A stretch of 27,107 bases of DNA from a virus (IMGVR_UViG_3300044617_000782:1-27107), one strand, 5' to 3'; positions 1,516 to 25,843 are shown, counted from the first letter of the stretch. The notes: generated by a model from the sequence alone, not told the origin. A program made the numbers and translations.

Positions 1516-1525
1516 CTCGATCCTT

Positions 1526-1930
1526 TCAGCGGGTCACGCCCTTGGATTTTTCGAAGGTGCGCAAGCCACCGATCCCCAGCATGCCGGTGATCACCACCCA
1601 CAGCAGGTCGAGGTTCAGCGCGGGCGGGGTCGGCCAGCCGTGGATGCTCGACGCCCAGGCCAGCAGCGGCTGCAGGATGGTTGCGTAGACGAAGCCGGCG
1701 CCGCCGGCCCAGCCGAAGAAGGGCCGCCAGCCGGCGACGAACACGCTGGGGTGGGCCGCCTCCCTGGCGTTGATCTCCAGCTGCGCGATGACCTGCTTGA
1801 GCTCGCCCTCGGCGGCCATCCGCATGAACTCCGCGTCGAGCTTGGCCCGCTCGCTCTTGTCCTCGGGGCCGAACCGATCCAGCAGGCTCTTGCCGATCTC
1901 AAGGACCGGGCCGATCAGCAGAGGGTTCAT
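1526..1930 (-). CDS. Holin, 3-TM / GTA-release holin-like
   Basis: 134 aa with EINAREAAHPSVFVAGWRPFFGW, hydrophobic segments and GMLGIGGLRTFEKSKGV, which are hallmark motifs of this family. Directly downstream of the endolysin. Confidence 0.88.
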   Translation of the reverse strand: MNPLLIGPVLEIGKSLLDRFGPEDKSERAKLDAEFMRMAAEGELKQVIAQLEINAREAAHPSVFVAGWRPFFGWAGGAGFVYATILQPLLAWASSIHGWPTPPALNLDLLWVVITGMLGIGGLRTFEKSKGVTR

Positions 1931-1931
1931 G

Positions 1932-2306
1932 TCAGTAGCTCCAGATGGTCGGCCGCGGCCAGCCCGGGCCGAGGTCGTCGAGGTGGATGAACCGGCCGCT
2001 ACCCTTCTGCTGCACGCCGATGCCGGTGAACCCGAACTCGGCGGCCAGCACGATCAGGCGCAGCGCCTCGGACCCCTGCACCCCGATGTCGACCGCGCGG
2101 CCCGTGCTGTGGGCCCCCGGCGAGGCCTTGGCCGCCTCGATCGGGTGGGTGTGGTGCCTGTACCCGCTGGTCACCCACATCGGCACGCCGAAGGCCTGGC
2201 GCAGGCGCTGCAGCCGGGCCATGAACTCGGGCTGCATCTGCAACTGCCCGCTGTGCCGGCAGCGGAACTCGTCCTCGTTGAAGTTGGGGTAGTCGGCCCA
2301 GTTCAC
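1932..2306 (-). CDS. Endolysin, peptidase M15A-type Zn peptidase
   Basis: NFNEDEFRCRH, VTSGYR, H-x6-D (AHSTGRAVDI) and FIHLD motifs of the M15 family. Located within the lysis cassette. Confidence 0.92.
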   Translation of the reverse strand: MNWADYPNFNEDEFRCRHSGQLQMQPEFMARLQRLRQAFGVPMWVTSGYRHHTHPIEAAKASPGAHSTGRAVDIGVQGSEALRLIVLAAEFGFTGIGVQQKGSGRFIHLDDLGPGWPRPTIWSY

Positions 2307-2620
2307 GGCTTCGGCCCCACGTTGATCGTGTGCGTGGCGAACCAGGTGACCGCGCCGCCGAGCGTGGCCGCAGCGCCGCCGAGACCCATCAGCAGCTTCC
2401 AGCCGCCCTTGGCCTCGGACAGCTTGTCCAGCACCAGGTCGAGCTTCTCGTCCATCGTGGACTGCTTGTGCTTGACATCGTCGAGCTCTGTCTTGAGCGC
2501 AGCGACCGCGCCCTCGAGGCGGCCGAATTCGCGAGGATCAATCATGTCTTCTTCCACTTTCGTGATGACCTGGGCGAGGTACTCAAGCTGCCGGTAGACG
2601 CTGGGGTCCGGGGGCGTCAT
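2303..2620 (-). CDS. Coiled-coil protein with C-terminal membrane helix (probable holin/antiholin-type lysis protein)
   Basis: EFGRLEGAVAALKTEL...KLDLVLDKLSEAKGGWK followed by hydrophobic LLMGLGGAAATLGGAVTWF. ATGA overlaps with both neighbours. An alternative start at MIDPREF (2545, preceded by GGAAG) is possible. Confidence 0.65.
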   Translation of the reverse strand: MTPPDPSVYRQLEYLAQVITKVEEDMIDPREFGRLEGAVAALKTELDDVKHKQSTMDEKLDLVLDKLSEAKGGWKLLMGLGGAAATLGGAVTWFATHTINVGPKP

Positions 2621-3822
2621 GTGTTGACGATCCCGGCGTTGATCAGGGCCGTGCGCAGGTTGTTGGCGAGCGTCTGCGTGGTGGCCGCGTCAGTCGCCGC
2701 AGCGCCCACCGTGGCACGGGTCCATGAGTTCCACGCGGTGCCGTATTCCGTGCCCGTGGTGTAACCCGCAAACGTGTTGCCTGCGGTTGTGCCACCCATC
2801 GCAGTTGCACCGTGTACCGCTCGCTTCGTCGCGATTGCTGCGTCGGCTTGGAAGGTGTTTCCAGCCAGAGCAAGGGCCGTCGAGGCTTGGTCGAAGTAGA
2901 TGCCGCAGTAAACGTCCGTCGCGCTCTTGTTCGTCGTCGTCATCCAGAAGATGTTGCCGACGATGGCCGAGATGGCGTACACCGGCCCGCCGTGAGTTCG
3001 AATGCGCAGGCTCGCGATGATCGAAGCCGAATTGGGGCTGGACTGCGCGCCCAATTCGAAGTGGCACCCCACAACCTGCGAGATAGCGAACCCTGTGAGG
3101 TCCGCATCACCGCCGGCGAAGGACGAGTAGAACCTCGACCCCTCCAGCACGCAGCCGGCGAAGCGCTCGGCGATGAGTTGCGCGAACGCGGCGCCGCCGT
3201 TGCCGTTGAAGATGCAGCCCGCCAAGGTCTGGTCGGCGAGGATCGCGCCAGTGGTGCTGGCCTTGCCGAACCACCCGCCCTTGGCGTTGTTGGTAAACCG
3301 GCATTCTTCCCAGCGGTTGTCGGCCACGCTGTTCACAATGTTGGTCCCGGCCTTGGTCTGGGCAGAGATCATGCAGCCGCGATCGGCGGCGTTCTGGAAA
3401 TGCACCTTGGAGAACTTGCTCCAGTAGGTTTGCCCGACAAAGCACGACCCGCTTGTGTTGTTGCTGCGGTTGCCGTCAAGCGTGAGGTCGACCATGAAGA
3501 ACGGCGCCTGGCTCGACGTGACGCTGGTCTCCCACCGCTCGTCGACAAGCAGGTTATCGTTGAGCCCGTTGGCCGCGATCAGTGTGGTGGCCGCCATGCC
3601 CATGCCGGCGACACCCACGCTGCCCCTGCGAATTAGCTTGTTGGCGTAGATCGTGCCACCGGGCAGGATGATGGCCTCGTTGGAACCCGCCGACGCCAGC
3701 GAGTCGATGGCCGCCTGGATGGCCGAGGTGTTCGTGGTGGCCGCGGCGTTGCTGCTGAGCACCAGCCCCGGCACGATGTTCGTGCGACGCAGCTTCTCGA
3801 CGTTGTTGATGCCCGTGCTCAT
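2617..3822 (-). CDS. Second tailspike / beta-helix depolymerase-like protein (~401 aa)
   Basis: Start moved to ATG 3822 (MSTGINN), which has GAGG upstream and lies just after the fibre stop at 3830. Contains NTSAIQAAID...IILPGGTIY...GMGMAATTL and DLTLDGNRSNN beta-helix motifs. Ends in an amphipathic helix LANNLRTALINAGIV typical of fibre trimerisation ends. Confidence 0.8.
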   Translation of the reverse strand: MSTGINNVEKLRRTNIVPGLVLSSNAAATTNTSAIQAAIDSLASAGSNEAIILPGGTIYANKLIRRGSVGVAGMGMAATTLIAANGLNDNLLVDERWETSVTSSQAPFFMVDLTLDGNRSNNTSGSCFVGQTYWSKFSKVHFQNAADRGCMISAQTKAGTNIVNSVADNRWEECRFTNNAKGGWFGKASTTGAILADQTLAGCIFNGNGGAAFAQLIAERFAGCVLEGSRFYSSFAGGDADLTGFAISQVVGCHFELGAQSSPNSASIIASLRIRTHGGPVYAISAIVGNIFWMTTTNKSATDVYCGIYFDQASTALALAGNTFQADAAIATKRAVHGATAMGGTTAGNTFAGYTTGTEYGTAWNSWTRATVGAAATDAATTQTLANNLRTALINAGIVNT

Positions 3823-3829
3823 GGTGGCC

Positions 3830-6106
3830 TCAGTTCGGGACGCGCAAGACTTTGAAACCAGAGCCGCCACTGTCCGCGGCGCCCTCGGTTACGGTCTTGT
3901 TGTTGATCTTCACGGGGGCGCCGTTGCCGACGTTGACGGAGCCGCTGCCGGCCGCCCGCACCATGCGGAGGTCGCCAGTGCCGGCGTCGATAGACACCCC
4001 CCACACGTTTGTTCCGTCATCGAGCACGACGTGATTTGATGCGGTGCTGTAGAAACGAACCGCTTCAGTACCTAAGCGATTGCGGGCGTTGATGGCGTTG
4101 CCGGCTGTGTCGGCAATCGGCACCTTTGTGTGGGCGGTGCCGTAAAGCACCCCGTTAGCGCCCATGACCGGGACCACGCACCCTGTTCCAAGAGTCGGGA
4201 ACGGCGTGCTGTTCTCAAAGTCCAGCATGTGGATGTGGCCGTTGCTCGGAACGGTCACCCCGGGGGTGTCAGTCCCCTCAAAAACCATTGGGCTGTCACC
4301 GCTGACAAGGTGAAAGCGGTTGCCGCGCGAATACGGCAGGACGATGTTGGATGTGCCACGATGGATCGCAGCCTTGCCAGTGCCGCCCCCGGCGTAAGTC
4401 AGCAGCCAGATGTCGTTGTTGTCGCTGCTGAAAAAGTCAACACCGTCGCCATTGAAGTGCTGAATCACATAGCGCAATTCGTTTAGGCTGACGTTCGCAT
4501 TGCTGCTGCCGCCGTGGTAAACGGCGTCGATGTTTGCTGCAGCGCCGAATCGCTGGCGGATGTAGAGACGTTGCACGCCGTGCTGGACATCACAGGCTTC
4601 GCCCAGATCCGTCCCCGTCACGCCGCAAGTGAACTGCATGGGAATGCCGGCAAAATCCAGCATCGTCAGTTCGTGGGTGAACTCCGAAATGGAGTCCACC
4701 AACAGCGCGCAAGTGGCGATGTTGTTCCCCGCCAGCGTAATGCCGACGAAGCCGCCGCCCGTGTTCTTCTGCGCAGTGGGTCCACCGTAAGGCGTGCGGT
4801 GCCGGCACAGGGTGATCGCTGACAGCCCGTACCAAAGCGTTCCGCCGGTATCTGGCGGCACATCGTGGAACGTGTTTGTGCCGGCGCCCCGAATCAGCAC
4901 TCGCGCCCGGTTGTTGTCCACCGTCGTGGCAATCAACGCCGCCCCCGCCGGCACTTCGATGACGCCGCCGCCGGCATCGCCGACAATCTGAATCAGCGCG
5001 TTCATCACCGGCCCCATGTCGGTGCCGTCTGTTTTGTAGCCGTAATCCTCGGCGTTGTAAATGTCCGTGAGCTTGGCCTGCACACTGCGGGCCACCCCGC
5101 CCGGCGCGGTGTAGCCGACCTGTGAGGCGTCGACAGCCTCGGTCGAGATGCTGCCGACCTCCACCACCACCTCGTCGCCGGCGGTGCAGGCCCGCGAGAG
5201 GGTGACCTGGCCCGTGCCCTCAACGAAAGCCCTGACGTACACGCCCCCGATGAACACGCGGACCTGGCCAGCGCCCGGCACGAACGGCGTGGTCAGCGGG
5301 AACACCGTCTGGCCAGCGGTGGCGGTGAACACCTCGGCGATGGCACCTGTCACCTGCTGCGCCACCGCGCCGCCGTAGCGCACGAAGACGCGCACGCCGT
5401 TGGCCGGCGGGGCGAGGAAGGTCAGCAGGTTGCCGGCCAGCGAGTAGTCCTCGGTGGCGGTCTGCGTCACACCGCCCACGGCCACGTCGATGTTGCCCAG
5501 CGAGCCCGGCGCCGAGGCCAGCGCGAACTGCGTCCGCACGCCGTCGCCGGTGAAAGACTGAGCCACCCAGTTCGCAAAGGCCGCGGCCGCGAAGGCCGCC
5601 GCCGGGTCGTAGTTCTGCAGCGCCGTGCCGGCCGCGTCCCACCCGAGCACCTTGCTGGCTTCCGGCGCAGGCAGTGTGGTGTCGGCGCCGGCCGCCGACA
5701 GCGGCAGCGGTAGCGCGCGGCCGGGTTCTTCGGCCAGCTGCTGGATCTGGTAGGTCGTGCGGTCGAGAGCGTTCTCGATGGCGCGGGGGCTGAAGGCGCC
5801 ACCGCCCGGTAGGTCCAGCGTCTGGTCGTAGGGGATCGCGCCCGCGATCGTGAGCGTGCTGCCGGTCGGCAGCGCGGCGCCGGTGATCGGGTAGGTGACG
5901 CTGCCGCCGGGGCTCGCGTCCTGGTCGCCGTTCAGCGTGACACTGTAGCCTGAGTTCAGGACGAGCGAGGTCTCGATGCCGTCCTCGTCGGCCACGACCA
6001 CCGCCAGGTCGGCGGCGGCGAACACCTTGAACGTGAACGGGAAGGAGGTGGTGACGCCGTTGCCGTTGAAAGGCCCGGCGCGCCTGGCGGTGGCGGGTAC
6101 GGTCAA
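3830..6106 (-). CDS. Tail fibre/tailspike with T7 gp17-like N-terminal anchor
   Basis: TTG start with AGGAG 8 nt upstream. N-terminus GNGVTTSFPFTFKVF...IENALDRTTYQIQQL is a podovirus fibre anchor. It is followed by two small beta domains (FTGDGVRTQFAL..; FTATAGQTVFPL..), the neck ARSVQAKLTDIYNAEDYG, a beta-helix body and a C-terminal GAADSGGSGFKVLRVPN. Confidence 0.88.
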   Translation of the reverse strand: MTVPATARRAGPFNGNGVTTSFPFTFKVFAAADLAVVVADEDGIETSLVLNSGYSVTLNGDQDASPGGSVTYPITGAALPTGSTLTIAGAIPYDQTLDLPGGGAFSPRAIENALDRTTYQIQQLAEEPGRALPLPLSAAGADTTLPAPEASKVLGWDAAGTALQNYDPAAAFAAAAFANWVAQSFTGDGVRTQFALASAPGSLGNIDVAVGGVTQTATEDYSLAGNLLTFLAPPANGVRVFVRYGGAVAQQVTGAIAEVFTATAGQTVFPLTTPFVPGAGQVRVFIGGVYVRAFVEGTGQVTLSRACTAGDEVVVEVGSISTEAVDASQVGYTAPGGVARSVQAKLTDIYNAEDYGYKTDGTDMGPVMNALIQIVGDAGGGVIEVPAGAALIATTVDNNRARVLIRGAGTNTFHDVPPDTGGTLWYGLSAITLCRHRTPYGGPTAQKNTGGGFVGITLAGNNIATCALLVDSISEFTHELTMLDFAGIPMQFTCGVTGTDLGEACDVQHGVQRLYIRQRFGAAANIDAVYHGGSSNANVSLNELRYVIQHFNGDGVDFFSSDNNDIWLLTYAGGGTGKAAIHRGTSNIVLPYSRGNRFHLVSGDSPMVFEGTDTPGVTVPSNGHIHMLDFENSTPFPTLGTGCVVPVMGANGVLYGTAHTKVPIADTAGNAINARNRLGTEAVRFYSTASNHVVLDDGTNVWGVSIDAGTGDLRMVRAAGSGSVNVGNGAPVKINNKTVTEGAADSGGSGFKVLRVPN

Positions 6107-6164: not shown

Positions 6165-9100
6165 TCAGTCCTTCGGTGGGGGCCCGAACAGGATCGAGGT
6201 CGGAGGCGCGTCGCCCTCGTCCCACGCCTTCCAGCCCTTGTAGCTGCGAATGACCTGCGTGGTCGGGAGGCCCAGCGCGGTGCCCAGGAAGCCGATGGCG
6301 GCGAGGATCGCGGGGTCGTCGATCTCGCCCTGCCCCGCCTGCTGCACCAGGCGCTTGCCGTCGTTCAGCAGCTTGGCCGCCGGCGGGCCGCCGTAGTCGA
6401 ACGGGGACCACAGGGTCGGCAGTTCGCGCAGGCCAACGAACATGCCCAGCAGGTAGCCCGCCTGCCACTCGGCCAGGCGCTTTGCCCAGTCCTCGGGCTC
6501 GTCGTCTTCGCCGCCGCCCTTCAACGCAAACGTGATCAGCGCCGGCAGGATGGCGGGGATGATCGCTAGGAGCGCCATGTCGCCAACCCAGCCCGCGACA
6601 GCGCGGGGGTTCTTGAAGTCGGTCAGCGCGGTCTTCTCGGCCACCAGGTTCAGGGTGGTCGAGAAGTAGCTGTAGAACTGCGTCAGGAAGGGCAGGCTGC
6701 GCTGGACGCCGGCCAAGTCCTTGGTGCCGCCGCCGCCCTGCGCAGACAGCACCGCTTCGTCAGCCAGGGCGACCGCGGTGCCCTCGTCAACCCCCTCGGC
6801 CAGCGCCTTCTCGTACATGCCGACCCAGGTCGGCACGTCGGCGATCATCTGCATCTTCTGCATCGGGTAGAAGAGCACCGCGTCCATGACCTTGGTGACC
6901 TTCCACTTGCCCTGGATGGTCTGGTTGATCTCGCGCAGTTCGCGGTTGAAAGTCTTGGCGCGCAGGCGCATGAACTCAGACTTGCCGTGGATCCACTCGA
7001 CCGTGCTCTCCATCCTGGCCGCATCGCCAGCCCAGCGGCCTGCGCCCTTGAGCACCGGCATCACGCCGATGCGGGCCATCGACTGCGTCAGGCCGAACGG
7101 CTGCAGCAGCGCGGTGGTGGCGCTGACGCCCATGATCGATCGCGTGACGTTGGCCCTCATCTGCAGCAGCAGCTTGTCGATCTGGGTCTGCTTGGCGAGG
7201 TCGCCGACCACGATCGCTTCGACCGCCTCGGTCATCGCGCGGTGGGTCTCGGCACCGTGGTGGTCGCGGATGGCGGCAGAGATCCGGGGGTCGGCCAGTA
7301 GCCGGTTGGCGTCGACCGCCCACTCGTGCCAGGCCAGGTCGTGCACCACCTGGCTGACGTGCTGGGTGATGGGCGCGAGATCCTTGCGGATCGGGCGGCC
7401 CTTGATCTCGTCCACCCGCGCCTTGGTGTGGCCCCGGCGGGTGGTCGGGCGCAGCATCGCGCCTCGCAGCATGTCGGCGGCGATCTCCTTGGCGTCGTTG
7501 ATCTGCGCCCGCACGCTGCGGTCGGCGTCGTACTTAATGGGGTAGTAGCCGCCGCGCATCTGCACCTGCGCGCCGTCGGCGCTGGTCAGCACGAAAGGCT
7601 CGGCCTCGACCTTGTCCTCGACCACGCCAGACACGCGCATCTGCTTGGCCTTGACGTCAGGCCAGTAGCTGTCGAGGTGTTCCCAGACCTGGTTGACGAA
7701 CTGCAGTTCGGCGGTCGACAGCGTGCCCAGGATCGCGTTGACTTGCGCCTCGGTCCACCCGTCGCCGTCCATCACGCGCTGGCGGTTCTGAGCGTTGCCC
7801 CAGTTCAGCGCGATAGCCAGGCGGCCGGCGCGCGAGAGGCTGTTGTTGATCTCGGGGATGAAGCGCTTGTCGCCACTCAGACCACCGGGCAGCTTGTCAA
7901 GAGGCGCGAAGATATCGGCCAGTGCCATCGTCGCCTTCTCCAGCGCGGTGTCCTCCTGCGTGCCGCGCTCGTTCATCGACTGGATCAGGAAGCGGAAGCC
8001 GGGGCCGCCCGCCTCGCCGCCATCCATCTGGCGGATCAGGCTGTTCAGCTTGCGGTGCTCGGCCCACGCGCCCTTGAAGAAGCTGACGATGCGGCCGTCG
8101 GGCTCGAGCTTCACGGGCCTCGGCTTGCCGCCGTTGGCGCGGATGCTATCGGCCCACTCGTTGGCGATGGCGTCGAACTCGCGCTTGTCCTTGGCGGCCA
8201 GCAGTTTCGACTTCAGGCGGCCCAGGTGCTCGATGTTCTTGATGCTCTCGGTGAGCTCGACGAACTCCTCGTAGGTCATCTCCTTGTAGCTCTTGAGGCG
8301 CATGTCCTCAAGCAGGCTGTCAGGCAGCACGGGGTCCAGGCCGATCGCGTGCTGCGACTCGATCCACTTGGCCAGGCTGGCGCGGCGGTCGATGTCGCGC
8401 CCGGTGGTGGACACGCGCAGATCCACGCGCTCGAGCAGCTTGTCGATCTGGTCGAGGTACTCGGGCGGCAGCTTCTCGCGGGCGCCGGCCTTGTCGAACT
8501 TTTTAAGGTAGTCCAGCAGCCCGCGCACCTTGGCCTCGGCTTCCAGCGCGGCCTTGGCGGCGGCGTTGTTGAGCACCTGATCCTGCTTGGCCTTGACCGC
8601 GTCGGCAGTCTTGCCTGCTGCCGTGGCCTCCTGCCATGCGGCTGCGGCGCGGCGCTCGGCGGCGGTGTGCTGCCAGGCCTTTGACTTCATGTCGCGGATC
8701 GTCGTGCGGCCGACCACGTTGGCTGCGAACTGCTTGGCCGCCTCGACCAGCGCGTTGACGGTGATCCTCGCGCCGCGCTTGTTGGTCTCGCCGGTGTCGG
8801 TGCGCTCGTTCAGCATCTCCGACTGAGCGCGCAGTTCGGTGGCCAGCGCCCGCGCGCGAGCCTCGTTGTGCACGGCCTCGTTGGCGGCCTGCTGGATGGC
8901 GCGCTCGTCGACCAGGTCGCCGTGCTCCTCAAGCATGCGCTGGTTGGTGCGGCCATCGATCACTTCAGCTTTGGGCTGTGCGTTCTCGATCTCGCGGGCC
9001 ATGTGGTCGATGCTGGTGAACCCGTACTGGGTGGCGATGCTGTCGAGCTTGGCGTCGGCGGCCACGGGGTCCGCGTCGGTCTCCTTGACCGCGCGTTCGA

Positions 9101-12100
9101 CCGCTTCCTTGGCCAAGTAGACCGGCATCTCGTCGACCTCGATCGTGACCTCGGCGCGGATCGTCTTCTCCCAATCCTTGGCTTGTTTCTGCAGGTCTTT
9201 GATCGCCTTGTCGCGGGCCTTCACGTTAAGCGCGAGGTCGCGCATCGAGCGCTTGTTCAGGCGCTCGGCCGCGGTGGCGTCGGCGTCCACGTCGGGCACC
9301 AGGCCAGCCACCCCGTTGGCCTGCGCGATCTGCTCGTCGGTGGCCAGCATGCGGTCCATGACGCGGCGGATGTCGTCGTTCAGCGGGGTCTGCTCGGCGT
9401 CGGGCTTGCCGGCCAGCATCTGCTTGATCGACCCGTACACCGACTTCAGCCAAGTCGCGAACCGGCGCATCAGTGGCTGGAGCTCGACGCTGGGGGCCCT
9501 GCCCTCCATCACGTACTGCTCGATGCTCTCGGCCCAGCGCTCGTGGTACTTGCGCTTGCCGTCCAGGTCCAGCGCGTTCCAGGCGGCGAGATCCTTGACC
9601 CCGGCCCACTTCAGGAACGCACCCATGTCCTCGACGATCTGCGCCGGCGCGTTCGGCTGGCTGGCGATGTCGGCCATCACCTCGAGGAAGAAGTGGCCGG
9701 TCTCGTGGAAGAACGTCGACAGGTTCGCGTTGGGGTTGAGGACGAGCTCGAGGGTCTTGGGGTTGAACGTGCCACGTGGGCCTTGCTTCAGGATGTCGGG
9801 GTCCGACTCGTCGAACGCGCCACTGTTGCCCAACCGGCTCTTGATCTGCGTGGGCTTGAACGCGATGAAGTGGACGGTGTCGGCGTCCATGCCTTTCATG
9901 CCCTTGCCGTACTTGCGCTGGCCTTCGCTGGCGCTGCCGAACTTCTCGTCGACGGTCTGGTCAATGAACCCGTCGAAGCCGGCCGCCTCGAACGCGCGGC
10001 GCAGGATCTCCTGCGGCGCCAGCTTGCCGTCGGACTCGTAGTCGGTGGCGTAGACAAGCCCTTCGGACAGTTTCGCGGTGGCGATGAGTTCACGCGCGGA
10101 GATGCCGCCGTTGCCCATCGCCTTCTCCATCAACTCGCCGATTGTCTGCTCGACGTCGGCGTCATCGTAACGCTCGTCCTGCGCCACCTCGCGCAGCGCT
10201 TCGATGACGTTGATCAGCGTGCCGGTCGGCTCGCCGTATTCGTCGGTGTCTTCGTCGTAGCTTTCCTCGTAGGTGAGGAAGGTCTCGCGCGATCCGCCCA
10301 GCACCGCAGGGTTTTGCATCTTGACCCAGACCGGCATGGTCAGGCCTTCGTTGGCCATCCACTTGTCGCGGGCGATGCGCTTCGCCTCGTCAGGATCTAG
10401 GTCGTCGTTCGACTCCAGGCGCTCGGCCTCGCCCTGGATCTTGTTCGTCAGGTCCGGCCCCATGCCGGCGTAGTTCTCGCCGACATCTGCAGGGTTGTTG
10501 GTGAAGTAGAACCCGCGCCCGAGGTCGCTCTCGATGTTCGCCATCGAGGTGTCGAACGTCGTGAAGTCGCCGGTGGTGCCGTGCAGCGCGGCGACCACCA
10601 CGGGCTCGCCGTCCCTGAACTCGTGCGCGTCGCCCAGGTCAACGCGCGTGGCGTCGCCTACGAAGCGGTCGAATCCGTCGGACTGGTTGAGGACACCCCC
10701 GGATGCGGCACCGGCCGCGGCGTCACGTCCGCTGCCGGCGGCGGTTCCTCCTGGTTGATCGGAAGCTCGTCGGTAGCTACTTCCGAGCGGTTGAGGGCCG
10801 GCTGTTGCAGACGCCCAATCTGGGCGTCCGATACCGCCAGCCAGTTCAAAGATCCGCTTGATTGCTTGCTCATGGGTCAGTTCTCCAGCGCTTACTTTCG
10901 ACCACACCTCGGCGACGTCACGCTTGAGCGCAGCCCCCTTCGCGTCGTACAGAAGACGCACTGCCTCCCAGGTGATCGATTGTAGTTCTCGGGGGAGGAT
11001 GCCAAGCTCGGCGGCTAGTTCCCTGTACGCATCGGCGTAGACCCCGTAGGCGCCCGTTGAGCCTGTGATGCTCGACCCGCCGATGCCCGCAAAGCCGCGC
11101 GCCGCGTCGTCCTTGCTGACGCCGCCAGACAGCACGTTCTGCACCTCGTGCGTCGTGCCACCCAGCGGGCGCAACAGTGCCGCGGCGACGGCGTGCGTGT
11201 CAATGGTGACGTCCTCGCCGGCGTAGGGGGCGACGATGTTGTTGAAGAACGAGCGGACCTTGTGGGCCCCGCCAGCGATCTTGCTGCGCGCTTCCGGGGT
11301 CCGCGCGACCAGCGCCGCGATCGCCTTGCTGATCTCGCCGGCCGAGCCCCAGCGCAGCGGCGTCGGCGTGCCGTCGGCTCGCGCGGTGAACAACTGGTCG
11401 GTGAAGGTGCCCTCGGGCGTGATCACCGAAAGCTCGCGCGGGTTGTGGGCCTCGTCGTAGGCGCGGACCCACCAGGCCATGCGGACGAACGAGTCGACGT
11501 CTGCCGGGTCGTACATCTGGCGCAGGGTCTTGCCCTCGACGTCCCTGACGTACTGGCTGATCGTCTTGTCCTGGAACCAGCCGCGCGCGTTGGCGACCGC
11601 GGTCATCTCGGACGACCACGGGAGCTCGCTCTTGGTGACGACGATGTCGATGACACGCTCGCCGCCGGTGACGTTCTCGAACCAGTTCTTCTGGGGCGAC
11701 AGCGCGGCGATCGCCAGCGCCACGTTCTCCAGCGGCACGCCGTAGGTCTCCGACAGCGCGCGCGCGATGCGGTTGCCGCCGACGTACCACATGCGAGCAC
11801 GTTCCTTGAGGTCAGCCGGGAAGGCGTCAACCAGCGCGCGAAGGTTGTCCTTCATGTGCTGCTTGGCCTGCTCCAGCACCTCGCGTGGCGTGCCTTTCAT
11901 GCCGGCGAAGTTCGGGTACTTCAGGAACTCCGCGGCGGTCTTGTCGATCATCGACTGCGGCATCGCGGCGATGGTCGGCTGCAGCCTGTTCTCGCCGAAC
12001 CCGTTCTCGGCGGCCTTGAGCGCACTCGGCATGCGCGGCGACACGCGCGCCTCGTTGAGTGACGACGCACGGTCGGCGTCGTTCTCTTCCGGGGGTTCGA

Positions 12101-14363
12101 CGCGCTGTTCCAGCACCGCGTTCGCTTCTTGCCGGAACGTCTTCTTGGCGTCGCGGATGTCCTCCATCGTGCTGACACCGAACTGCTTCTCGGCCTCGGT
12201 GCGGCTGATGAAGTTGCCGGCGGCGTCGATGAACCCGGTGTTGTCGGTGCCCTGGTCCCACTCAGCCGACAGCCGGCCCCACGCCCCCGTGGTCTCGCCC
12301 TTCGGCACGCTGTTGATGGCGCCCTGGTGCGACCAGCCGGTGTAGACGGTGCCAGTCTGGGGGTCACGCATCGCGGCGCGCATGCCTTCCAGCGCGCGCT
12401 GCTTCTCAACGCGGGTCTCCCACTCGGACTTGACCGCTGCCTGCCCGGCCTCGACCTGCGGTTGCATGGCCTTCAGCTTGGCCAGCAGGCTGTCGAGATC
12501 CTGGTCCATCACCTGCTGCCCCGCGCTGCTGGGCTCGCCCAGGATGCGCAGCGGAAAGCGCTGCTGGAACTCGGTCGGCGTCATGCCGTTGCGCGCGGCC
12601 TGCGTCGTGTAGTACGACGCCAGCCAGTGCGCCTTCATGTCGTTTACCGTCTTGCGGAACCGACTGGTGGCGTTCAACTGGTCTGCGTACAGTTTGTGGA
12701 TCGCGTCGTACTCGGCGCGCGCTGCGTCTTGGTCCTCGGCCTGCTGGATGATCTGCTGGGCACGCGCGGTGACCCGCTCAAACTCAGGCCCGACCTGTTT
12801 AGCCTCGGCCTGCGACAGCGCGAACGGGTCCACCTTCGCGTTCTCGACGACAACCTGCTCCAGCGGGGTGCCTGGCGCGATCGTCAGGAGATCCGCCACC
12901 GCGATCTCGACCGTGTTGCCGGTGGCGGCCGCAGTGCTGATCTCCGACCAGACCTGCTCGGGCAACTGCTGCAGGAGCTCGAGCGGCAGCTGGTTCAGCA
13001 CCTCGCCGTCAATGTGGATGGTCGAGCCGTCGGTCATCGACTGCATCAGCGCGCGGAACTGCTCGGGGCTGCGCTCGCGCAGCGCGGCGGTGCCGGCGGT
13101 CTTGAGCGCTTCGGCCAGGTTGTCGGCGTTCTGCTTCGCTGCGTCGGCCTGCTGGGCGCGCTTTTCGATCATGCCGGCGACCTGCTCGCTGGCCTGCTGC
13201 GTGGCGCTGACACCACCGCCAGCGCCCACCCCGCCCATGATCGAAGCCAGCACGCCCTCGGACAGGCTCTTGCCCTCGTCGTAGGCGAGCAGCGCGGCGA
13301 GGTTGCTGTTGACCTGCTGCAGGCCCTCGGTGCCGCCCTCGGCGACCATCGCCTTGGCGAGGCCCTTCAGCCCGTTGCCCTTAGCCCCGAGCACCTTGTC
13401 GAGACCGTACTTCTCCAACAGCGCGTTGACGATCGCGGTCTGCGCGACGGCCTGCGTGAAGTCGGCGTCGCTGATCTTGATGCCGGTCTTCTGTTCGAAC
13501 TCAGCGGCGTTGCCGGCCTGCTCCATGCCCTCGAGCCAGCCCATGAACGCGACCGAGCCGCCCGACTTCATCGCGAGGTACAGCGAGGGGATGGCCTGCG
13601 ACATGAACGCCGACCAGTAGTTCGGGTCGGTGACCACCTGTCCGATCTGCTCGAGGTTGCCGGTCTGCACCGCGGTAGCCAGCGCCTTGTCCGCGTTCTG
13701 CGCCAGCGTCTGCACGTCGGCGAAGGCGCTGCCGAAGGTCTCCTTGTCGGTCAGGATCTTCTGAGCGTCGTTGACCTGGTCGGCGATGTTGGTCGTGCCA
13801 CCCATCGACCCGACGGCCGGAACCCGGCCCTCGCTGATGAAGCGGATCACGTCCTGCACCCCGCGGATGGGGTTCAGGTTGCGCGGCAAACCGGTGCGCT
13901 CGACGGTCTCGGCAAGGTAGCCGACCGCGCGCTGCGCAGCGTCAGGCGTGCGCCAGATGCCCTCGCTGATGCCGAGCACGGCGCTGCCGACGCTGGCGGC
14001 CGCGACCTTGGCGAAGCCGCTCTCGATCTTGGCCAGAGGCTCGATGTCGTCCTGCGCCATCGCTGCCAGGCGTGCGTTCGCGGCCATCGCCGCCGCCAGC
14101 TTCGGGCTGGTCTTCAGGCGCTCGTCGGCCTTGTCAACCGCCTCCTGCACGCGCACGTCGGCGAGGTTGCGGTAGAGGGTGTCGACCGGCGCGGGGTAGC
14201 GCTTGGCCAGGCGCTCGGCCTCGGCCATGTCGTCGGGCTTGATCGTGGCCGCGGCCTTGAGCACCGTGCGGACGGGGGGTGTGCCCTCGGGCACTGCGGT
14301 CGTGGGGTCGAACTCAACGGGCCGCGCGGTGCTGGGGTCGAATGTCACTTGACGGGTTCCCAC
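6165..14363 (-). CDS. Giant internal virion / ejection protein, polyvalent (2732 aa): LPD22-like N-terminus, glycosylase-like domain, ADP-ribosyltransferase (ART-PolyVal-like), HExxH metallopeptidase
   Basis: Occupies the T7 gp16-equivalent position. ART motifs: LHGT, GRGFYFT, MPVWVKMQNP, GFDG, AFKPTQIKSRLGNSGAFD. Zincin motifs: FFHETGHFF plus HERWAESIEQY. Glycosylase-like segment: WY...AALSPQKNW..N...KVRSFFNNI...VTIDTHA...ELQSITW. Gly/Ala-rich hydrophobic helices in the N-terminal third. Confidence 0.88.
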   Translation of the reverse strand: MGTRQVTFDPSTARPVEFDPTTAVPEGTPPVRTVLKAAATIKPDDMAEAERLAKRYPAPVDTLYRNLADVRVQEAVDKADERLKTSPKLAAAMAANARLAAMAQDDIEPLAKIESGFAKVAAASVGSAVLGISEGIWRTPDAAQRAVGYLAETVERTGLPRNLNPIRGVQDVIRFISEGRVPAVGSMGGTTNIADQVNDAQKILTDKETFGSAFADVQTLAQNADKALATAVQTGNLEQIGQVVTDPNYWSAFMSQAIPSLYLAMKSGGSVAFMGWLEGMEQAGNAAEFEQKTGIKISDADFTQAVAQTAIVNALLEKYGLDKVLGAKGNGLKGLAKAMVAEGGTEGLQQVNSNLAALLAYDEGKSLSEGVLASIMGGVGAGGGVSATQQASEQVAGMIEKRAQQADAAKQNADNLAEALKTAGTAALRERSPEQFRALMQSMTDGSTIHIDGEVLNQLPLELLQQLPEQVWSEISTAAATGNTVEIAVADLLTIAPGTPLEQVVVENAKVDPFALSQAEAKQVGPEFERVTARAQQIIQQAEDQDAARAEYDAIHKLYADQLNATSRFRKTVNDMKAHWLASYYTTQAARNGMTPTEFQQRFPLRILGEPSSAGQQVMDQDLDSLLAKLKAMQPQVEAGQAAVKSEWETRVEKQRALEGMRAAMRDPQTGTVYTGWSHQGAINSVPKGETTGAWGRLSAEWDQGTDNTGFIDAAGNFISRTEAEKQFGVSTMEDIRDAKKTFRQEANAVLEQRVEPPEENDADRASSLNEARVSPRMPSALKAAENGFGENRLQPTIAAMPQSMIDKTAAEFLKYPNFAGMKGTPREVLEQAKQHMKDNLRALVDAFPADLKERARMWYVGGNRIARALSETYGVPLENVALAIAALSPQKNWFENVTGGERVIDIVVTKSELPWSSEMTAVANARGWFQDKTISQYVRDVEGKTLRQMYDPADVDSFVRMAWWVRAYDEAHNPRELSVITPEGTFTDQLFTARADGTPTPLRWGSAGEISKAIAALVARTPEARSKIAGGAHKVRSFFNNIVAPYAGEDVTIDTHAVAAALLRPLGGTTHEVQNVLSGGVSKDDAARGFAGIGGSSITGSTGAYGVYADAYRELAAELGILPRELQSITWEAVRLLYDAKGAALKRDVAEVWSKVSAGELTHEQAIKRIFELAGGIGRPDWASATAGPQPLGSSYRRASDQPGGTAAGSGRDAAAGAASGGVLNQSDGFDRFVGDATRVDLGDAHEFRDGEPVVVAALHGTTGDFTTFDTSMANIESDLGRGFYFTNNPADVGENYAGMGPDLTNKIQGEAERLESNDDLDPDEAKRIARDKWMANEGLTMPVWVKMQNPAVLGGSRETFLTYEESYDEDTDEYGEPTGTLINVIEALREVAQDERYDDADVEQTIGELMEKAMGNGGISARELIATAKLSEGLVYATDYESDGKLAPQEILRRAFEAAGFDGFIDQTVDEKFGSASEGQRKYGKGMKGMDADTVHFIAFKPTQIKSRLGNSGAFDESDPDILKQGPRGTFNPKTLELVLNPNANLSTFFHETGHFFLEVMADIASQPNAPAQIVEDMGAFLKWAGVKDLAAWNALDLDGKRKYHERWAESIEQYVMEGRAPSVELQPLMRRFATWLKSVYGSIKQMLAGKPDAEQTPLNDDIRRVMDRMLATDEQIAQANGVAGLVPDVDADATAAERLNKRSMRDLALNVKARDKAIKDLQKQAKDWEKTIRAEVTIEVDEMPVYLAKEAVERAVKETDADPVAADAKLDSIATQYGFTSIDHMAREIENAQPKAEVIDGRTNQRMLEEHGDLVDERAIQQAANEAVHNEARARALATELRAQSEMLNERTDTGETNKRGARITVNALVEAAKQFAANVVGRTTIRDMKSKAWQHTAAERRAAAAWQEATAAGKTADAVKAKQDQVLNNAAAKAALEAEAKVRGLLDYLKKFDKAGAREKLPPEYLDQIDKLLERVDLRVSTTGRDIDRRASLAKWIESQHAIGLDPVLPDSLLEDMRLKSYKEMTYEEFVELTESIKNIEHLGRLKSKLLAAKDKREFDAIANEWADSIRANGGKPRPVKLEPDGRIVSFFKGAWAEHRKLNSLIRQMDGGEAGGPGFRFLIQSMNERGTQEDTALEKATMALADIFAPLDKLPGGLSGDKRFIPEINNSLSRAGRLAIALNWGNAQNRQRVMDGDGWTEAQVNAILGTLSTAELQFVNQVWEHLDSYWPDVKAKQMRVSGVVEDKVEAEPFVLTSADGAQVQMRGGYYPIKYDADRSVRAQINDAKEIAADMLRGAMLRPTTRRGHTKARVDEIKGRPIRKDLAPITQHVSQVVHDLAWHEWAVDANRLLADPRISAAIRDHHGAETHRAMTEAVEAIVVGDLAKQTQIDKLLLQMRANVTRSIMGVSATTALLQPFGLTQSMARIGVMPVLKGAGRWAGDAARMESTVEWIHGKSEFMRLRAKTFNRELREINQTIQGKWKVTKVMDAVLFYPMQKMQMIADVPTWVGMYEKALAEGVDEGTAVALADEAVLSAQGGGGTKDLAGVQRSLPFLTQFYSYFSTTLNLVAEKTALTDFKNPRAVAGWVGDMALLAIIPAILPALITFALKGGGEDDEPEDWAKRLAEWQAGYLLGMFVGLRELPTLWSPFDYGGPPAAKLLNDGKRLVQQAGQGEIDDPAILAAIGFLGTALGLPTTQVIRSYKGWKAWDEGDAPPTSILFGPPPKD
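10658..10873 (-). CDS. Candidate nested +1-frame small protein (71 aa, acidic/Pro-rich) inside the giant gene
   Basis: ATG at 10873 with GGAG 9 nt upstream. Hand count over these 71 codons: about 31 A/T third positions in the host frame versus about 19 in the nested frame. The rest of the giant gene is overwhelmingly G/C at third positions. Confidence 0.45.
   Translation of the reverse strand: MSKQSSGSLNWLAVSDAQIGRLQQPALNRSEVATDELPINQEEPPPAADVTPRPVPHPGVSSTSPTDSTAS
10979..11005 (-). promoter_or_regulatory. Possible internal sigma70-like promoter TTGGCA-N15-TACAAT
   Basis: Both hexamers match consensus 5/6 and are built partly from codons rare in this genome (CTT, CTA, CAA). It lies about 100 nt upstream of the nested ORF. 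The 15-nt spacer is short. Confidence 0.35.
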
Positions 14364-15907
14364 TTGCCGCCGCCGAGATACTTGGCGCGGTTGTTCTTGG
14401 CGTCGGTGTAGACCTTGCCGACGGTGAACTGGTCGGGCTTCATCGCCGCGTTGCGCACGTCGCGCGGCGCGGTGTAAGCCGGGCCCCTGGTGTCCCAGAT
14501 CCAGCCCGGCTTGATGACGACGTCCTGCACCAGCTTGTCGAGGATGGCCTGGCGCTCGTCGTAGGTCGGCTCCTTGCCCTTGGCCTTCAGGTGCTCGTTG
14601 AAGAGGTCGTAGGCGGCGGCCTGGAACTGGCCGAGCTTCTCGCCCTTCAGGTCCATCTGGCGCGTGAAGGAGCCGATCTGCTGCTCGCTGGTGGCCACCT
14701 CCACAGTCTTGCCGGGGTTGTTGCGCTTGGTCTTGATGTCGAGCAGCTGCTCCAGCTGGGGGCCGGCGATCTTGGTCGTCAGGGCCTGCAGGTTCACGCT
14801 GTCGCGCACGGCGGGGTCGTCGCTGAACAGCTTCTCGCGGGCATCGATGTAGACCTTCCAGTCGGTCTTGACGGTCTCGCCGCTGGCCGCCTGTTTGGCG
14901 CGGTCCTTGAGATAGTCCTGCAGCGTCACGCGCTCGCGGCCGTTCATCTGCATCAGCACGCGCTCGGGTACGCGCTTGCCCTGGCCCACCATCTGCCAGG
15001 CCTGATCGCTGGCGCCGCGCTCGCGGTCGACCTGCGCCTGGCGCTCGACGGCGGCGATGTTGTTGAACTCGGCGCGGGTCTTGGTCAGGCGGTCGGGGTC
15101 GCTGATCTTGGCCAGCGCCTCGGCGCGCTGGTCGGCCGGCAGCGCGTACACGCGCGCGGCCTCGGCCTTGGCGAACTGGTTGTCGCCCTCGGCCTTGAGC
15201 ACCTGCTCGACCCGGGCCTGCGCGCTGGCCGGGATCTCGCCCTTGCTCGCGGTGTAGTACGTGCTGGCCTTGGCCGCGTCGCGCTCGGCCAGCGTGCTGA
15301 TGTAGGCGAGGTGCAGCGTGCCCAGCAGGCGCTGCTGCTCGGCCTGCACCATCTCGGTCGTCCAGCCCTTGCGCGCGCCCTTCTCGGCGGCGATCTTGCG
15401 CACCTGCGACGCGGCGCCGGCGGTGTCGCCGGTGTCGACAGCGAAGTCGATGCTGGTCTGTGCCGCGGCCTCCGCGCTGTCGTCAGCGAAGCGCTCCTTC
15501 TCGCTGTTGACGTGGCCGAGCACCGAGCCCATCGCCTGGTTGCGCTTGCGCCCCAGCTGCTGGCTGATGGCCCGCTGGGCTAGGGGGCTCAGGTCTTTGC
15601 CGTAGGTCTCACTGGCCTTGTCCCACCACTTGGCCGCCTCGACCTCGTACTCGCCGACGTTCTGCCCGCGATACTGCTGGCGCGCCTTGGCGTCCCACTG
15701 CAGCCAGCCGGCGGTGATCTCGGTGTCGACCCGGTTGGCCTCGGTCTCGGCGTCGCGGCGCACGACCTTGTCGATCTCCCCGCCCACGTTGCCGAGCGCG
15801 CCGGCCAGTGCGCGCATCCCCGACGAGACGTCGATCTCGCGCTGCTGCACCGGCTGCAGCGCGTTGCTGCGAACCTGGGGGCCACCGTAGACGGGAACCT
15901 GGGCCAC
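14345..15907 (-). CDS. Internal virion / ejection protein (T7 gp15-equivalent position)
   Basis: 520 aa, GTG start, helical Ala/Gln/Lys-rich. N-terminus MAQVPVY...ALAGALGNVGG is typical of these proteins. Lies between the gp14-like gene and the giant gene. Confidence 0.75.
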   Translation of the reverse strand: MAQVPVYGGPQVRSNALQPVQQREIDVSSGMRALAGALGNVGGEIDKVVRRDAETEANRVDTEITAGWLQWDAKARQQYRGQNVGEYEVEAAKWWDKASETYGKDLSPLAQRAISQQLGRKRNQAMGSVLGHVNSEKERFADDSAEAAAQTSIDFAVDTGDTAGAASQVRKIAAEKGARKGWTTEMVQAEQQRLLGTLHLAYISTLAERDAAKASTYYTASKGEIPASAQARVEQVLKAEGDNQFAKAEAARVYALPADQRAEALAKISDPDRLTKTRAEFNNIAAVERQAQVDRERGASDQAWQMVGQGKRVPERVLMQMNGRERVTLQDYLKDRAKQAASGETVKTDWKVYIDAREKLFSDDPAVRDSVNLQALTTKIAGPQLEQLLDIKTKRNNPGKTVEVATSEQQIGSFTRQMDLKGEKLGQFQAAAYDLFNEHLKAKGKEPTYDERQAILDKLVQDVVIKPGWIWDTRGPAYTAPRDVRNAAMKPDQFTVGKVYTDAKNNRAKYLGGGKWEPVK

Positions 15908-15910
15908 GGG

Positions 15911-16441
15911 TCAGGTCCAGCCGCCGTGGCCCGCGCCGAGGTTGCTCTTCGGCTTGCCGTAGTCGTACCACTTGCCGGCGACCTGGCCGCCGGTGGACAG
16001 CAGGGTGCTGAAGGCCTGCATGTTGGCCTGCGTCGCAGCGGCGTTGCCGGCGGCGGCCGCGGCGCTGCCACTGGCCCGGGCCGACCAGGCGTCGCGCTGC
16101 GCGTTGCTGCGGGCGGTGGACATGTCGGTGGCGCCGAAGAAGTCGGTCTGGTCCTGCAACTCGGCGCTGGTGCCGACGCCCAGGTCCAGCCCCTTGGCGG
16201 CCATGCCCGCGCGCTGCGCGCCCTTGATCTGGCTGGCGCGCTGGCGCACCTGGTTCGCCTGCTCGTCGCCGCGGCGGATCGCGTCCTGCGCAGCGTACTC
16301 GGCCATGATCTGGTTGTTGCGGCCGGTGGCCTTGGCCACGCGCCCCTGGTCGTAGGCGCTCTTGGCCGCGAGCACGCCGGCGGCCGCGGTCGTGCCGAGC
16401 GCGACGGTCGCCATCGTCGACAGGGTGATCGGCTCACACAT
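15911..16441 (-). CDS. Internal virion protein (T7 gp14-like)
   Basis: MCEP N-terminus followed by a hydrophobic Ala/Gly segment, QIKGAQRAGMAAKGLDLGVGTS and a C-terminal amphipathic segment. Both motifs and position are typical. Confidence 0.85.
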   Translation of the reverse strand: MCEPITLSTMATVALGTTAAAGVLAAKSAYDQGRVAKATGRNNQIMAEYAAQDAIRRGDEQANQVRQRASQIKGAQRAGMAAKGLDLGVGTSAELQDQTDFFGATDMSTARSNAQRDAWSARASGSAAAAAGNAAATQANMQAFSTLLSTGGQVAGKWYDYGKPKSNLGAGHGGWT

Positions 16442-16901
16442 GGTTCATCTCGAAGAGGTGGAACGGCTCGCCGTTGTGGGTGTGCGCGGGACGCAGCACG
16501 AAGCCGCTGCGCTTGAGCCAGCGCACCGCCACCGTGTTGCGGGCGTGCACGACGTTCACGAGGCGTGGGTAGGCCTGCAGCATCGCCTGAATGTAGACGG
16601 GCGCGAGGCGGGCAAGGGCACGCCGGTTCTGGGTGACGAGCTCGGTGCCGAGCATCCACGGGATGCCGCGGGGGTCGAGCAGCGAGCCGTGGGGCGCGAC
16701 GCCGAAGATGCAGGCCACGCGCCCCTCGACCAGCGCTGTCAGCGACCAGTCACTCATGGCGACGCTGTCCGCGATCGTGCGCTGGTGGTCGGCGTGGCCC
16801 GAGGCGTCGAGCTCGTCGCGGTCCTGCTGGCGCAGGTTGGCGGCCAGTTCCTCGATGTGCGCCGGCGTGGGCGCGACGACGTCAACCGCCGACCGCGACA
16901 T
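16434..16901 (-). CDS. GNAT-fold / T7 gp13-like virion assembly protein
   Basis: LRQQDRDEL, PWMLGT and LVNVVHARNTVAVRWLKRSGF motifs. Conserved position after the nozzle gene. Confidence 0.85.
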   Translation of the reverse strand: MSRSAVDVVAPTPAHIEELAANLRQQDRDELDASGHADHQRTIADSVAMSDWSLTALVEGRVACIFGVAPHGSLLDPRGIPWMLGTELVTQNRRALARLAPVYIQAMLQAYPRLVNVVHARNTVAVRWLKRSGFVLRPAHTHNGEPFHLFEMNHV

Positions 16902-21712: not shown

Positions 21713-22285
21713 TCAGGTTTTGGGGGTGTTGCCGTAGAGGATGTCGGCGTGGCTGCGCGGAGGGGTCTCACCCCCACTGCGCCCGGCCACGATCTTGTCC
21801 TCGCTGATCGCACGGCCCACAGCGAGCGCCAGGCGGATCACCTCAGGGTGGTTGCCCATCCCCGTCGTGTTCAGCAGATCGCGGAGTTCAGGTGTGCCGA
21901 AGGTGTCGATCGCCTTCTTGGCGGTGGCCAGGTTCTCGGCCGTGCCGAGCTCCTTGTCCGCCTTCACCTGCTCGCCCCAGGTCTCGACCTGCTTCGCGAA
22001 GGCCTCGGCTCGTGCAACTTCTCGCGCGGCGGCGAGGTCGACGAACTTCTTGGCGGCATCGGCCGGCAGCTTCAGTTCCTTGGCGATGGCGGTGAACTTG
22101 CCCAGGTCTTCCTGGTTCAGTTCCACACCTTCGGGCGCGTCGAACTTGTACTCGACCTCGGCGGGTGCCGCGGTCGTGGTAGTCGCCGGCGCGCTCGTGT
22201 CCGCGACCTTGGTGGTCGTGTCGGTCGTCTGCGTTCCCCCGCCGTCGTTGGTGGCTGTGGCGGTGTCCTGCGTTTCGGTCGTCAT
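21713..22285 (-). CDS. Capsid scaffolding/assembly protein (~190 aa)
   Basis: Start moved to ATG 22285 (MTTETQ; ATGA overlap with the upstream gene, AAGGA RBS). Thr-rich N-terminus, YKFDAPEG, TGMGNHPEVIR...GRAISED and C-terminal ADILYG. Precedes the major capsid gene. Confidence 0.85.
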   Translation of the reverse strand: MTTETQDTATATNDGGGTQTTDTTTKVADTSAPATTTTAAPAEVEYKFDAPEGVELNQEDLGKFTAIAKELKLPADAAKKFVDLAAAREVARAEAFAKQVETWGEQVKADKELGTAENLATAKKAIDTFGTPELRDLLNTTGMGNHPEVIRLALAVGRAISEDKIVAGRSGGETPPRSHADILYGNTPKT

Positions 22286-22584
22286 TGAGCGAATTCCTTG
22301 AGCATCGTGACGTAGCCTTCGAACGATGTGTCGAGGATCTCGCCCTCGAGCCACAGGCCCACGTTCTGGGCGCCTGCGTTGAACGACATCACCGACCCGC
22401 TCGTGTTGAACGGGGTGCGCCTGGTGCCGGTTCTCTCGAAGATGCGAGCCACGATCCTTCGTCCTTGGGCGTGAGCCATCAGCCACCTGAGGTCGTCCAC
22501 TTCCTGCTTGCGTCGGCGGTCGGCTTCCAGCTTGTTGGCCTTGGCGTCGGCGTCTTGCTGCTGCAGGTCTGTGGGGTCTCTCAT
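22282..22584 (-). CDS. Bbp19-like phage protein
   Basis: DDLRWLM..AQGRRIV...MSFNAGAQNVGLWL pattern. This family usually lies between portal and scaffold. Confidence 0.8.
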   Translation of the reverse strand: MRDPTDLQQQDADAKANKLEADRRRKQEVDDLRWLMAHAQGRRIVARIFERTGTRRTPFNTSGSVMSFNAGAQNVGLWLEGEILDTSFEGYVTMLKEFAQ

Positions 22585-24082: not shown

Positions 24083-24084
24083 GC

Positions 24085-25443: not shown

Positions 25444-25446
25444 CGG

Positions 25447-25842: not shown

Positions 25843-25843
25843 G

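Follow-up and report, generated by a model that had tools for sequence, protein, structure and literature searches.

Cargo modules bordered by Phi-x-Q motifs in a predicted zincin of a giant podophage ejection protein: candidate self-cleavage sites

A 918-aa cassette of cargo, made up of an unknown module, DUF7178 and ART-PolyVal, was found in a giant podophage ejection protein, inside what is predicted to be the fold of a zincin peptidase. The junctions of the cassette carried a short motif, Phi-x-Q. Comparison with homologues made the enrichment of this motif at cargo borders solid at the level of sequence. The motifs are probably, with a good deal of doubt, sites at which the predicted zincin of the protein cuts its own chain. 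The window, as the term is used here, is the whole stretch of viral DNA analysed (IMGVR_UViG_3300044617_000782:1-27107; 27,107 nucleotides).

RESULTS

Genomic setting of the giant ORF

The window spans the block of structural genes of a podophage, and the viral record is 61% complete. Among sequencing runs, the best DNA match was a lake-water run, from which the window may derive. The genes on the minus strand are, in the upstream part, those for the portal, a scaffold-like ORF, the capsid, Bbp16, two tail proteins and the gp13-, gp14- and gp15-like proteins, and, in the downstream part, the giant ORF (6165-14363), the tail fibres and the lysis genes. The giant ORF is encoded amid virion genes, with the gp14/gp15-like genes on one side and the tail-fibre genes on the other. 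The relevant features were:

14345..16901, minus strand: upstream ejection block, gp15-like (14345-15907), gp14-like (15911-16441) and gp13-like (16434-16901), from family profiles and the BPP-1 order
6165..14363, minus strand: giant ejection (internal virion) protein in the position of Bbp10 / T7 gp16, from the ORF call, phrog_9880 and BPP-1 Bbp10 homology
14001..14264, minus strand: LPD22 domain in the N-terminal scaffold (Pfam PF18834, E=3.6e-13)
6192..9050, minus strand: conserved C-terminal scaffold with hydrophobic segments at 6510-6605 and 6249-6323, from phrog_9880 and hydropathy

The product is 2732 aa long if counted from the first GTG; the database start at 14348 gives 2727 aa. The gene order was shared with bbp12-bbp11-bbp10 of BPP-1. 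The peptidase region matched 50 GenBank phage records, including that of BPP-1 Bbp10, which was 45% identical to it (E=2e-39). From the shared gene order and this similarity of sequence the ORF was assigned as a BPP-1 Bbp10-like ejection protein, and its position among the genes suggested that the product is packaged in the virion and injected. The chain contains three domains of effector or LPD type (LPD22, DUF7178 and ART-PolyVal) and is a member of the polyvalent-protein class. When it was searched for two membrane-crossing regions of the T7 gp16 type, the C-terminal segments alone passed the hydropathy cut.

Two side observations concern other parts of the window. A block of five ORFs (22632-26473, minus strand), among them those for a BNR-repeat protein (24085-25443) and for a virion structural protein (25447-25842), separates the portal and scaffold genes, which is an unusual place for such genes. 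At 1-6106 (minus strand) there are three fibre/spike genes with beta-helix-like domains (3830-6106, 2617-3870 and 1-1515), the last of them situated beyond the holin and endolysin genes.

Layout of the cassette

A first-pass annotation of the window had described three unrelated domains between the scaffold segments RFPLRI and RGTFNP, with similar tetrapeptides at the boundaries. Each of the nine strings that it named was found: RFPLRI (aa 602-607), VMDQ (618-621), TFRQ (742-745), VLEQ (750-753), VLNQ (1224-1227), ILKQ (1524-1527), RGTFNP (1530-1535), HETGH (1553-1557) and HERWAESIEQY (1607-1617). HETGH, placed about 25 residues past the last Gln, lies 26 residues from it. The domains were indeed unrelated, one being unclassified and the others DUF7178 and ART-PolyVal. 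The cassette and two further copies of the motif were mapped as follows:

12501..12512, minus strand: junction 1, VMDQ, N border of the cassette; near-identical strain contigs part at 12500
12117..12500, minus strand: cargo module 1, about 128 aa, unclassified, containing TFRQ (12129-12140)
12105..12116, minus strand: junction 2, VLEQ; the P0012 alignment begins at aa 754 and strain contigs stop or diverge at 12112
10695..12104, minus strand: cargo module 2, DUF7178 (about 445 aa folded) with a disordered tail
10683..10694, minus strand: junction 3, VLNQ; the P0040 alignment begins at aa 1225; pLDDT 32-33
9795..10682, minus strand: cargo module 3, ART-PolyVal, predicted ADP-ribosyltransferase-like (Pfam PF18760, E=7.9e-15)
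9783..9794, minus strand: junction 4, ILKQ, C border, two residues ahead of the RGTF strand; motif in 114/120 homologues
11868..11879, minus strand: non-junction VLEQ in a DUF7178 helix (negative-control site); helix pLDDT 98-99; kept in 2/16 aligned homologues
12990..13001, minus strand: conserved scaffold Phi-x-Q, VLNQ (aa 455-458), a candidate extra site that may be structural, from homologue conservation

Module 1 gave no significant family or Atlas match, and no further copy of it was present among the 120 homologues or the loci. DUF7178 (window 10764-12104) was modelled with confidence (pLDDT 87) as a largely helical domain some 440 aa long. It appeared enzyme-like, with the invariant motifs SPQ-x-x-W-x-x-N and T-x-D-T-H, and its model gave no PDB fold match in Foldseek. 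It was also seen outside such cassettes, both as separate ORFs (443-460 aa) and as the C-terminal part of other proteins.

On the single sequence the case for the motif was weak. Between aa 607 and 1540 there were 8 copies of the bare [LMF]xQ, compared with 4.7 in shuffles (P=0.085). The pattern [VIT][LMF]xQ, which was fitted post hoc, gave 7 copies against 0.75 expected, a number reached by 0/5000 shuffles. Several copies had been omitted from the first-pass annotation. The second VLEQ (11868-11879) and a TLRQ both lie within the folded core of DUF7178 (pLDDT 96-99). On the other hand, the junction VLNQ was disordered in the model, its low pLDDT being due in part to missing alignment depth. 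The omitted scaffold VLNQ (12990-13001) was kept in 106/108 and 73/81 aligned homologues, which makes it the best-conserved Phi-x-Q of the protein; it was also present in the cassette-free alleles L083 and L088. This copy could have a structural role, or it could be an ancestral cut site that frees the N-terminal part with LPD22.

The motif at cassette borders of homologues

The homologue set consisted of the best 120 of 1,185 full-length matches, chosen through the peptidase. Nine without the N anchor were left out of the cassette counts, leaving 111. The rows are related, so these counts overstate independent events. The C border was scored as positive if [LMFYI]-x-Q occurred within 14 residues before the RGTF strand.

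By this measure Phi-x-Q was present at the C border in 114/120 homologues, in 101/114 unique loci (a scorable ORF being found in 134/188 sequences), and in 110/131 domain matches from 127 representatives below 50% identity, where several misses were anchor errors. All six cultured or isolated phages examined (BPP-1, Carin-1, AF, JessA, CP2 and Usme) carried it, as did four of five more distant phages at 28-34% identity. In the exception, vir555 (L190), x-Phe-Gln (TQFQ and ARFQ) replaced it at both cassette borders, possibly as a shift of specificity. The cassettes of the 111 homologues ranged from 126 to 1517 aa. Cargo varied while Phi-x-Q stayed at the borders, the alignment result to be expected from the first-pass proposal of a self-processing polyprotein.

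The N border (111 homologues) had Gln in 37, Phi-[NEDKS]-[A/T] in 55 and other residues in 19. A small residue followed the Gln: Gly in 68% at the C border, and Ala, Ser, Arg or Gly inside cassettes. The cassettes contained 942 copies of Phi-x-Q among 93,675 residues, and many others occurred in conserved scaffold helices. The motif is low in information, and accessibility must therefore do much of the site selection.

By profile the family comprised 1,234 representatives (50% identity clusters) at E<=1e-30 and 7,207 at E<=1e-10. A GTDB scan gave 2 loci, and no match to the window was found among the RNA datasets listed. Two unusual arrangements were seen among the homologues. P0243 has repeated scaffold halves and duplicated cargo, from a tandem duplication or an assembly artefact. 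In L022 and L024 (phages AF and CP2) a second HExxH domain lies within the cargo, that is, a peptidase nested in a peptidase.

A predicted zincin with three sockets

Two natural alleles, L083 and L088, were free of the cassette. L083 was predicted by AlphaFold2 to be a single domain (pLDDT 91, pTM 0.89), with the order helix, strand LRIA, 12-residue loop, strands GAFD and VALL, HExxH helix and Glu helix (H35-56, E70-73, E86-89, E94-97, H103-123 and H155-174). This model represents the MPTase core as defined in the part of Iyer et al. that was available (PMC5512222). Since L083 was modelled as one domain without the cassette, the 918-aa cassette is predicted to interrupt the fold between strands 1 and 2. 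The two scaffold halves are predicted to form one zincin around the cassette loop. The parts in the window were:

12540..12752, minus strand: N-terminal half of the predicted zincin, helices and strand 1 (LRIL), limits approximate, from the L083 model and structural alignments
9333..9776, minus strand: C-terminal half of the predicted zincin, strands 2-3, HETGH (9693-9707) and the likely third zinc ligand, Glu 9540-9542
9588..9599, minus strand: socket 2, empty in the window, in the loop between the HExxH helix and the Glu helix; filled in 12/114 scored homologues
9381..9416, minus strand: socket 3, empty in the window; filled in 27/117 scored homologues

A structural search with the L083 model returned zincin folds first, aligned across the loop and spanning both halves. 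The top matches were the anthrax lethal factor catalytic domain (Z 6.2), 3dl1 (5.8) and PPEP-2 (5.5). These scores are middling, the best having an rmsd of 4.9 over 159 aligned residues. There was no Foldseek match at E<=0.001 for the predicted zincin, no zincin match by sequence and no Pfam peptidase match. HExxH and the third-ligand Glu (in a downstream HExxA; HERWA here) were intact in 120/120 homologues. No dead-peptidase member was recovered from this set, the homologues having been chosen through the peptidase, and the sole variant was the x-Phe-Gln of vir555. The first-pass annotation had placed the cassette next to an HExxH peptidase; the L083 model and structural alignments place it instead inside the predicted peptidase fold.

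Sockets 2 and 3 are located in or just past the peptidase domain. Inserts in socket 3 carried Phi-x-Q at both ends in 27/27 cases, compared with one motif in 5/90 empty sockets. In socket 2, both ends carried it in 10/12 inserts, and none of the 102 empty sockets did. The inserts lacking the motif were P0056 and P0073 (socket 2) and one in phage Usme. The 39 inserts of sockets 2 and 3 fell into 31 cargo clusters, and the same cargo recurred across sockets 1, 2 and 3 at 47-89% identity, always bracketed by the motif. The scaffold tree, which recombination makes unfit for counting origins, gave 11 changes for the 12 socket-2 inserts and 20 for the 27 socket-3 inserts (shuffled means, 11.6 and 24.5). 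The cassette-free L088 kept HExxH and had no motif in the loop. When a complex of a cassette-free peptidase (L088 alignment), zinc and the VLNQ peptide of the window protein was predicted, the score was 0.11, the mark being 0.32.

The motifs might instead be read and left uncut, as a docking, unfolding-pause or folding-boundary signal that assists packing of the chain or its domain-by-domain threading through the tail, or as a pseudo-substrate plug of the zincin, with the protein staying whole. Such a role would suit the frequent replacement of Gln at the N border and the location of the most conserved copy (aa 455-458) in the scaffold amid hydrophobic residues. It would also agree with N4 vRNAP and plasmid ArdC and TraC1, which are delivered at full length despite an MPTase domain, according to the available part of PMC5512222. 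We consider it unlikely: the motif at both ends of inserts in three sockets is not readily explained by an uncut signal, nor is the small residue after Gln.

Exchange of modules at the motif

Internal borders were defined by BLAST alone between cassette interiors, with the terminal motifs trimmed, for pairs of at least 75% identity. A motif was found within 10 aa of 107/170 alignment starts and 69/112 ends, against about 0.205 at random. Phi-x-E, Phi-x-K and Phi-x-A were below random rates at these borders, and Phi-x-D was near or below. Alignments of the window cassette began at aa 754 (P0012) and aa 1225 (P0040), matching VLEQ and VLNQ. The breakpoint motifs had the profile small-small-[VTA]-[LFY]-[ENA]-Q-[ASRG]-[AG], which was absent from the other interior copies.

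The motif preceded DUF7178 in 16/16 family members, compared with 12/93 other contexts, which included free-standing ORFs. The motif therefore belongs to the carrier and not to the cargo. Cargo in 16 chosen proteins included ART-PolyVal, GNAT, PBECR5, ParB, RadC/JAB, LPD23 and DUF3293. No motif-bounded cassettes were seen by eye in the gp15-like neighbour (8/73 proteins inspected).

Exchange was also evident between strains. Contigs about 96-98% identical to the window were compared from eight lake runs. Those of runs X2 and X6 diverged at 12500 (VMDQ), and those of X2, X3, X5 and X6 (4/8) stopped or diverged at 12112 (VLEQ). Module 1 was therefore exchanged between VMDQ and VLEQ, with TFRQ internal to it. 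The proposed tetrapeptide at every boundary thus held for VMDQ, VLEQ, VLNQ and ILKQ. TFRQ was ruled out as a swap border by both the BLAST alignment starts and the strain contigs.

Codon usage was compared at the motifs. The Phi residue at the C border was L in 77, Y in 11, F in 9 and M in 4, with all six Leu codons used, and the Gln codons were CAA in 57 and CAG in 44. Inside cassettes the Gln codons of the motifs (96 CAG : 31 CAA) were used equally with the background (2185 : 805). As the codons vary, the signal lies in the protein. A palindromic DNA site, CTG-NNN-CAG, was ruled out by this codon use. Of 58 repeat families, the 20 largest contained no shared DNA repeat that spanned the four junctions.

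A separate observation was made at the C border (window 9771-9785, minus strand, and homologous loci), where the rarer CAA was favoured (46/67), as was CTA for Leu (16/50), and the CAA of the motif was followed by GGC CCC CGC across homologous loci. This bias may reflect a DNA- or RNA-level constraint or shared descent.

These data bear on whether the motifs are recombination scars, that is, short DNA homologies for module exchange with no function in the protein. Among loci of at least 90% identity, 20/43 DNA breakpoints were no more than 15 nt away from a Gln codon at a junction, compared with 13% at random. This, the parting of strains at 12112 and 12500, the copy present in the empty socket 1 of L083, and the CAA (46/67) with GGC CCC CGC at the C border are as expected from scars. 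On the other hand, the breakpoints spread from -13 to +12 around the codon (about 25 nt), at no single base, and the Leu codon at the 12112 breakpoint of run X6, read by hand, differed synonymously. The codons and the Phi residue varied freely, the Gln codons in cassette interiors were at background, and the empty sockets 2 and 3 mostly lacked a target copy. We regard scars as quite improbable. Exchange occurred at the motif with no fixed DNA site, as judged by codon spread and scattered breakpoints, and the arrangement was not that of an att-like cassette. The first-pass suggestion of scars from serial insertion was borne out as to exchange at the motif; a pure DNA scar was disfavoured by the varying codons and Phi residues and the scattered breakpoints. 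As exchange takes place at the motif, the readings 'cut site' and 'swap point' are compatible with each other.

Candidate proteases other than the zincin

The motifs might be cut by another enzyme, either a host protease or a phage head-maturation protease acting in the prohead, as in T4, phiKZ and SPN3US. Ejection proteins are described in PMC5694885 as being processed by head proteases at motifs of three residues (A-x-E in SPN3US), and the T4 ADP-ribosyltransferase Alt is cut at ITE-6 and LTE-619, which resemble Phi-x-Q. In the window, ORF 21713-22486 matches phrog_458, labelled 'protease', but gave no Pfam or NCBIfam protease match. The capsid protein and Bbp16 contained no junction-like copy, and the scaffold ORF had one (ELNQE). 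No Peptidase_S78 was found in the viral record, which is only 61% complete and whose portal is only partly within the window. The motif is retained across phages that infect Bordetella, Caulobacter, Cobetia, Pseudomonas, Xanthomonas and Vibrio, so that a phage-borne enzyme fits better than a host enzyme. Overall we give cutting by another enzyme a low probability. ORF 21713-22486 (minus strand) is itself of low complexity, lies just before the capsid gene and is probably the scaffold gene.

DISCUSSION

Self-cleavage and its proposed course

Self-cleavage by the predicted zincin gave the best fit to the paired motifs on loop inserts, the catalytic residues kept in 120/120 homologues and the persistence of the motif across unrelated hosts. 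Counting against it are the weak N border, the three motif-less inserts, the commonness of the tripeptide, and the full-length delivery of N4 vRNAP, ArdC and TraC1.

In the proposed course, the giant chain would be packaged whole in the virion and would pass through the tail unfolded. By analogy with T7 gp16, it would refold and load zinc on the cytoplasmic side; the available part of PMC8954989 would provide the analogy for the middle of the chain reaching the cytoplasm, refolding and cutting there. The cut would fall between Gln and the small residue, in cis or between subunits. Its position after Gln is suggested by the profile and by the modules that start directly past the Gln. The freed cargo (ART-like, GNAT, PBECR nuclease, ParB, JAB and DUF7178) may then act on host targets or defences. 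Going by the analogy, processing would follow injection; processing inside the head is the alternative.

An insert in a loop needs cuts at both ends, which would explain why inserts bring two motifs. The need for two cuts would also explain why only recombinants joined at the motif persist.

Taken as a whole, the system may be a self-excising effector magazine of a widespread podophage family, in which cargo is carried in the loops of a split zincin that is reassembled after injection, and every Phi-x-Gln is cut to free the effectors. Modules would be swapped at this same motif, so that new combinations could still be cut, and other polyvalent families would have codes of their own. We put this full reading forward tentatively, at somewhat short of an even chance. 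If it is true, cargo borders could be read from the sequence in other polyvalent families.

That phages deliver numerous early effectors within a single giant chain has stood as an open proposal from 2017 on, and the proposal came with no testable site. The present analysis offers predicted cut sites at the level of residues, with a built-in negative control (11868-11879), in a system carried by cultured phages whose hosts are harmless (Caulobacter JessA, Cobetia Carin-1 and Pseudomonas phage AF). It also offers a rule for dividing thousands of such proteins into candidate counter-defence effectors, many of which have no family. The Phi-x-Q code, the three peptidase sockets and the strain-level exchange at the motif are apparently new within the literature covered, as far as our searches reach. 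That literature, to which subscription journals contributed little, described no junction code or processing for the Bbp10-like family, and the parts of it available contained no cleavage product of any family member and no virion proteomics of a member.

Comparison with known systems

Autoproteolytic release of domains by the MPTase, in the head or after injection, was proposed by Iyer et al. in 2017. The portion of that article available likewise describes large virion proteins joining the MPTase with ART, GNAT, PBECR, ParB and LPD domains, and it gives no cleavage-site code; the supplementary alignments could show the motif (PMC5512222). The same portion describes N4 vRNAP as having an HExxH domain and yet being packaged unprocessed. 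In the N4 structure the HExxH is in the C1 domain, and the available text reports no cleavage (PMC13434306).

Bbp10 is listed as a homolog of T7 IVP-D (gp16) in Table 2 of Hardies et al. (PMC4819975, available in part). The giant protein resembles BPP-1 Bbp10 and T7 gp16 (IVP-D), of the epsilon15 subgroup, in its place after the gp14- and gp15-like genes and in its C-terminal hydrophobic segments. T7 gp16 is 1318 aa long, and no such cassette is described for it in the available part of PMC8954989; BPP-1 Bbp10 has its own 174-aa cassette, between QFDQ and KFYQ. Database records label Bbp10 as a lysin or a crystallin-motif protein. It is also called a lysin in the available text of the OANV1 preprint, and that of the phi24B preprint suggests that the peptidase of its giant protein acts on peptidoglycan.

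In the head processing of T4, phiKZ and SPN3US, a three-residue motif likewise marks injected proteins, including an ADP-ribosyltransferase. There the prohead protease is a separate enzyme, which trims the ends of proteins after Glu and acts on capsid and portal proteins too (PMC5694885, available in part). The motif of the window protein differs in that it ends in Gln and stands between internal modules, not at the N-terminus of a capsid protein.

RNA-virus polyproteins are single chains with repeated, degenerate Gln | Gly/Ser junctions and an embedded 3C-like or NIa protease. These are cysteine proteases of proven cutting. In the window protein, on the other hand, the candidate is predicted to be a zinc enzyme, with its own cargo breaking up the fold. 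It would be unusual for a protease to be split by as many as 2,000 residues of its own substrate.
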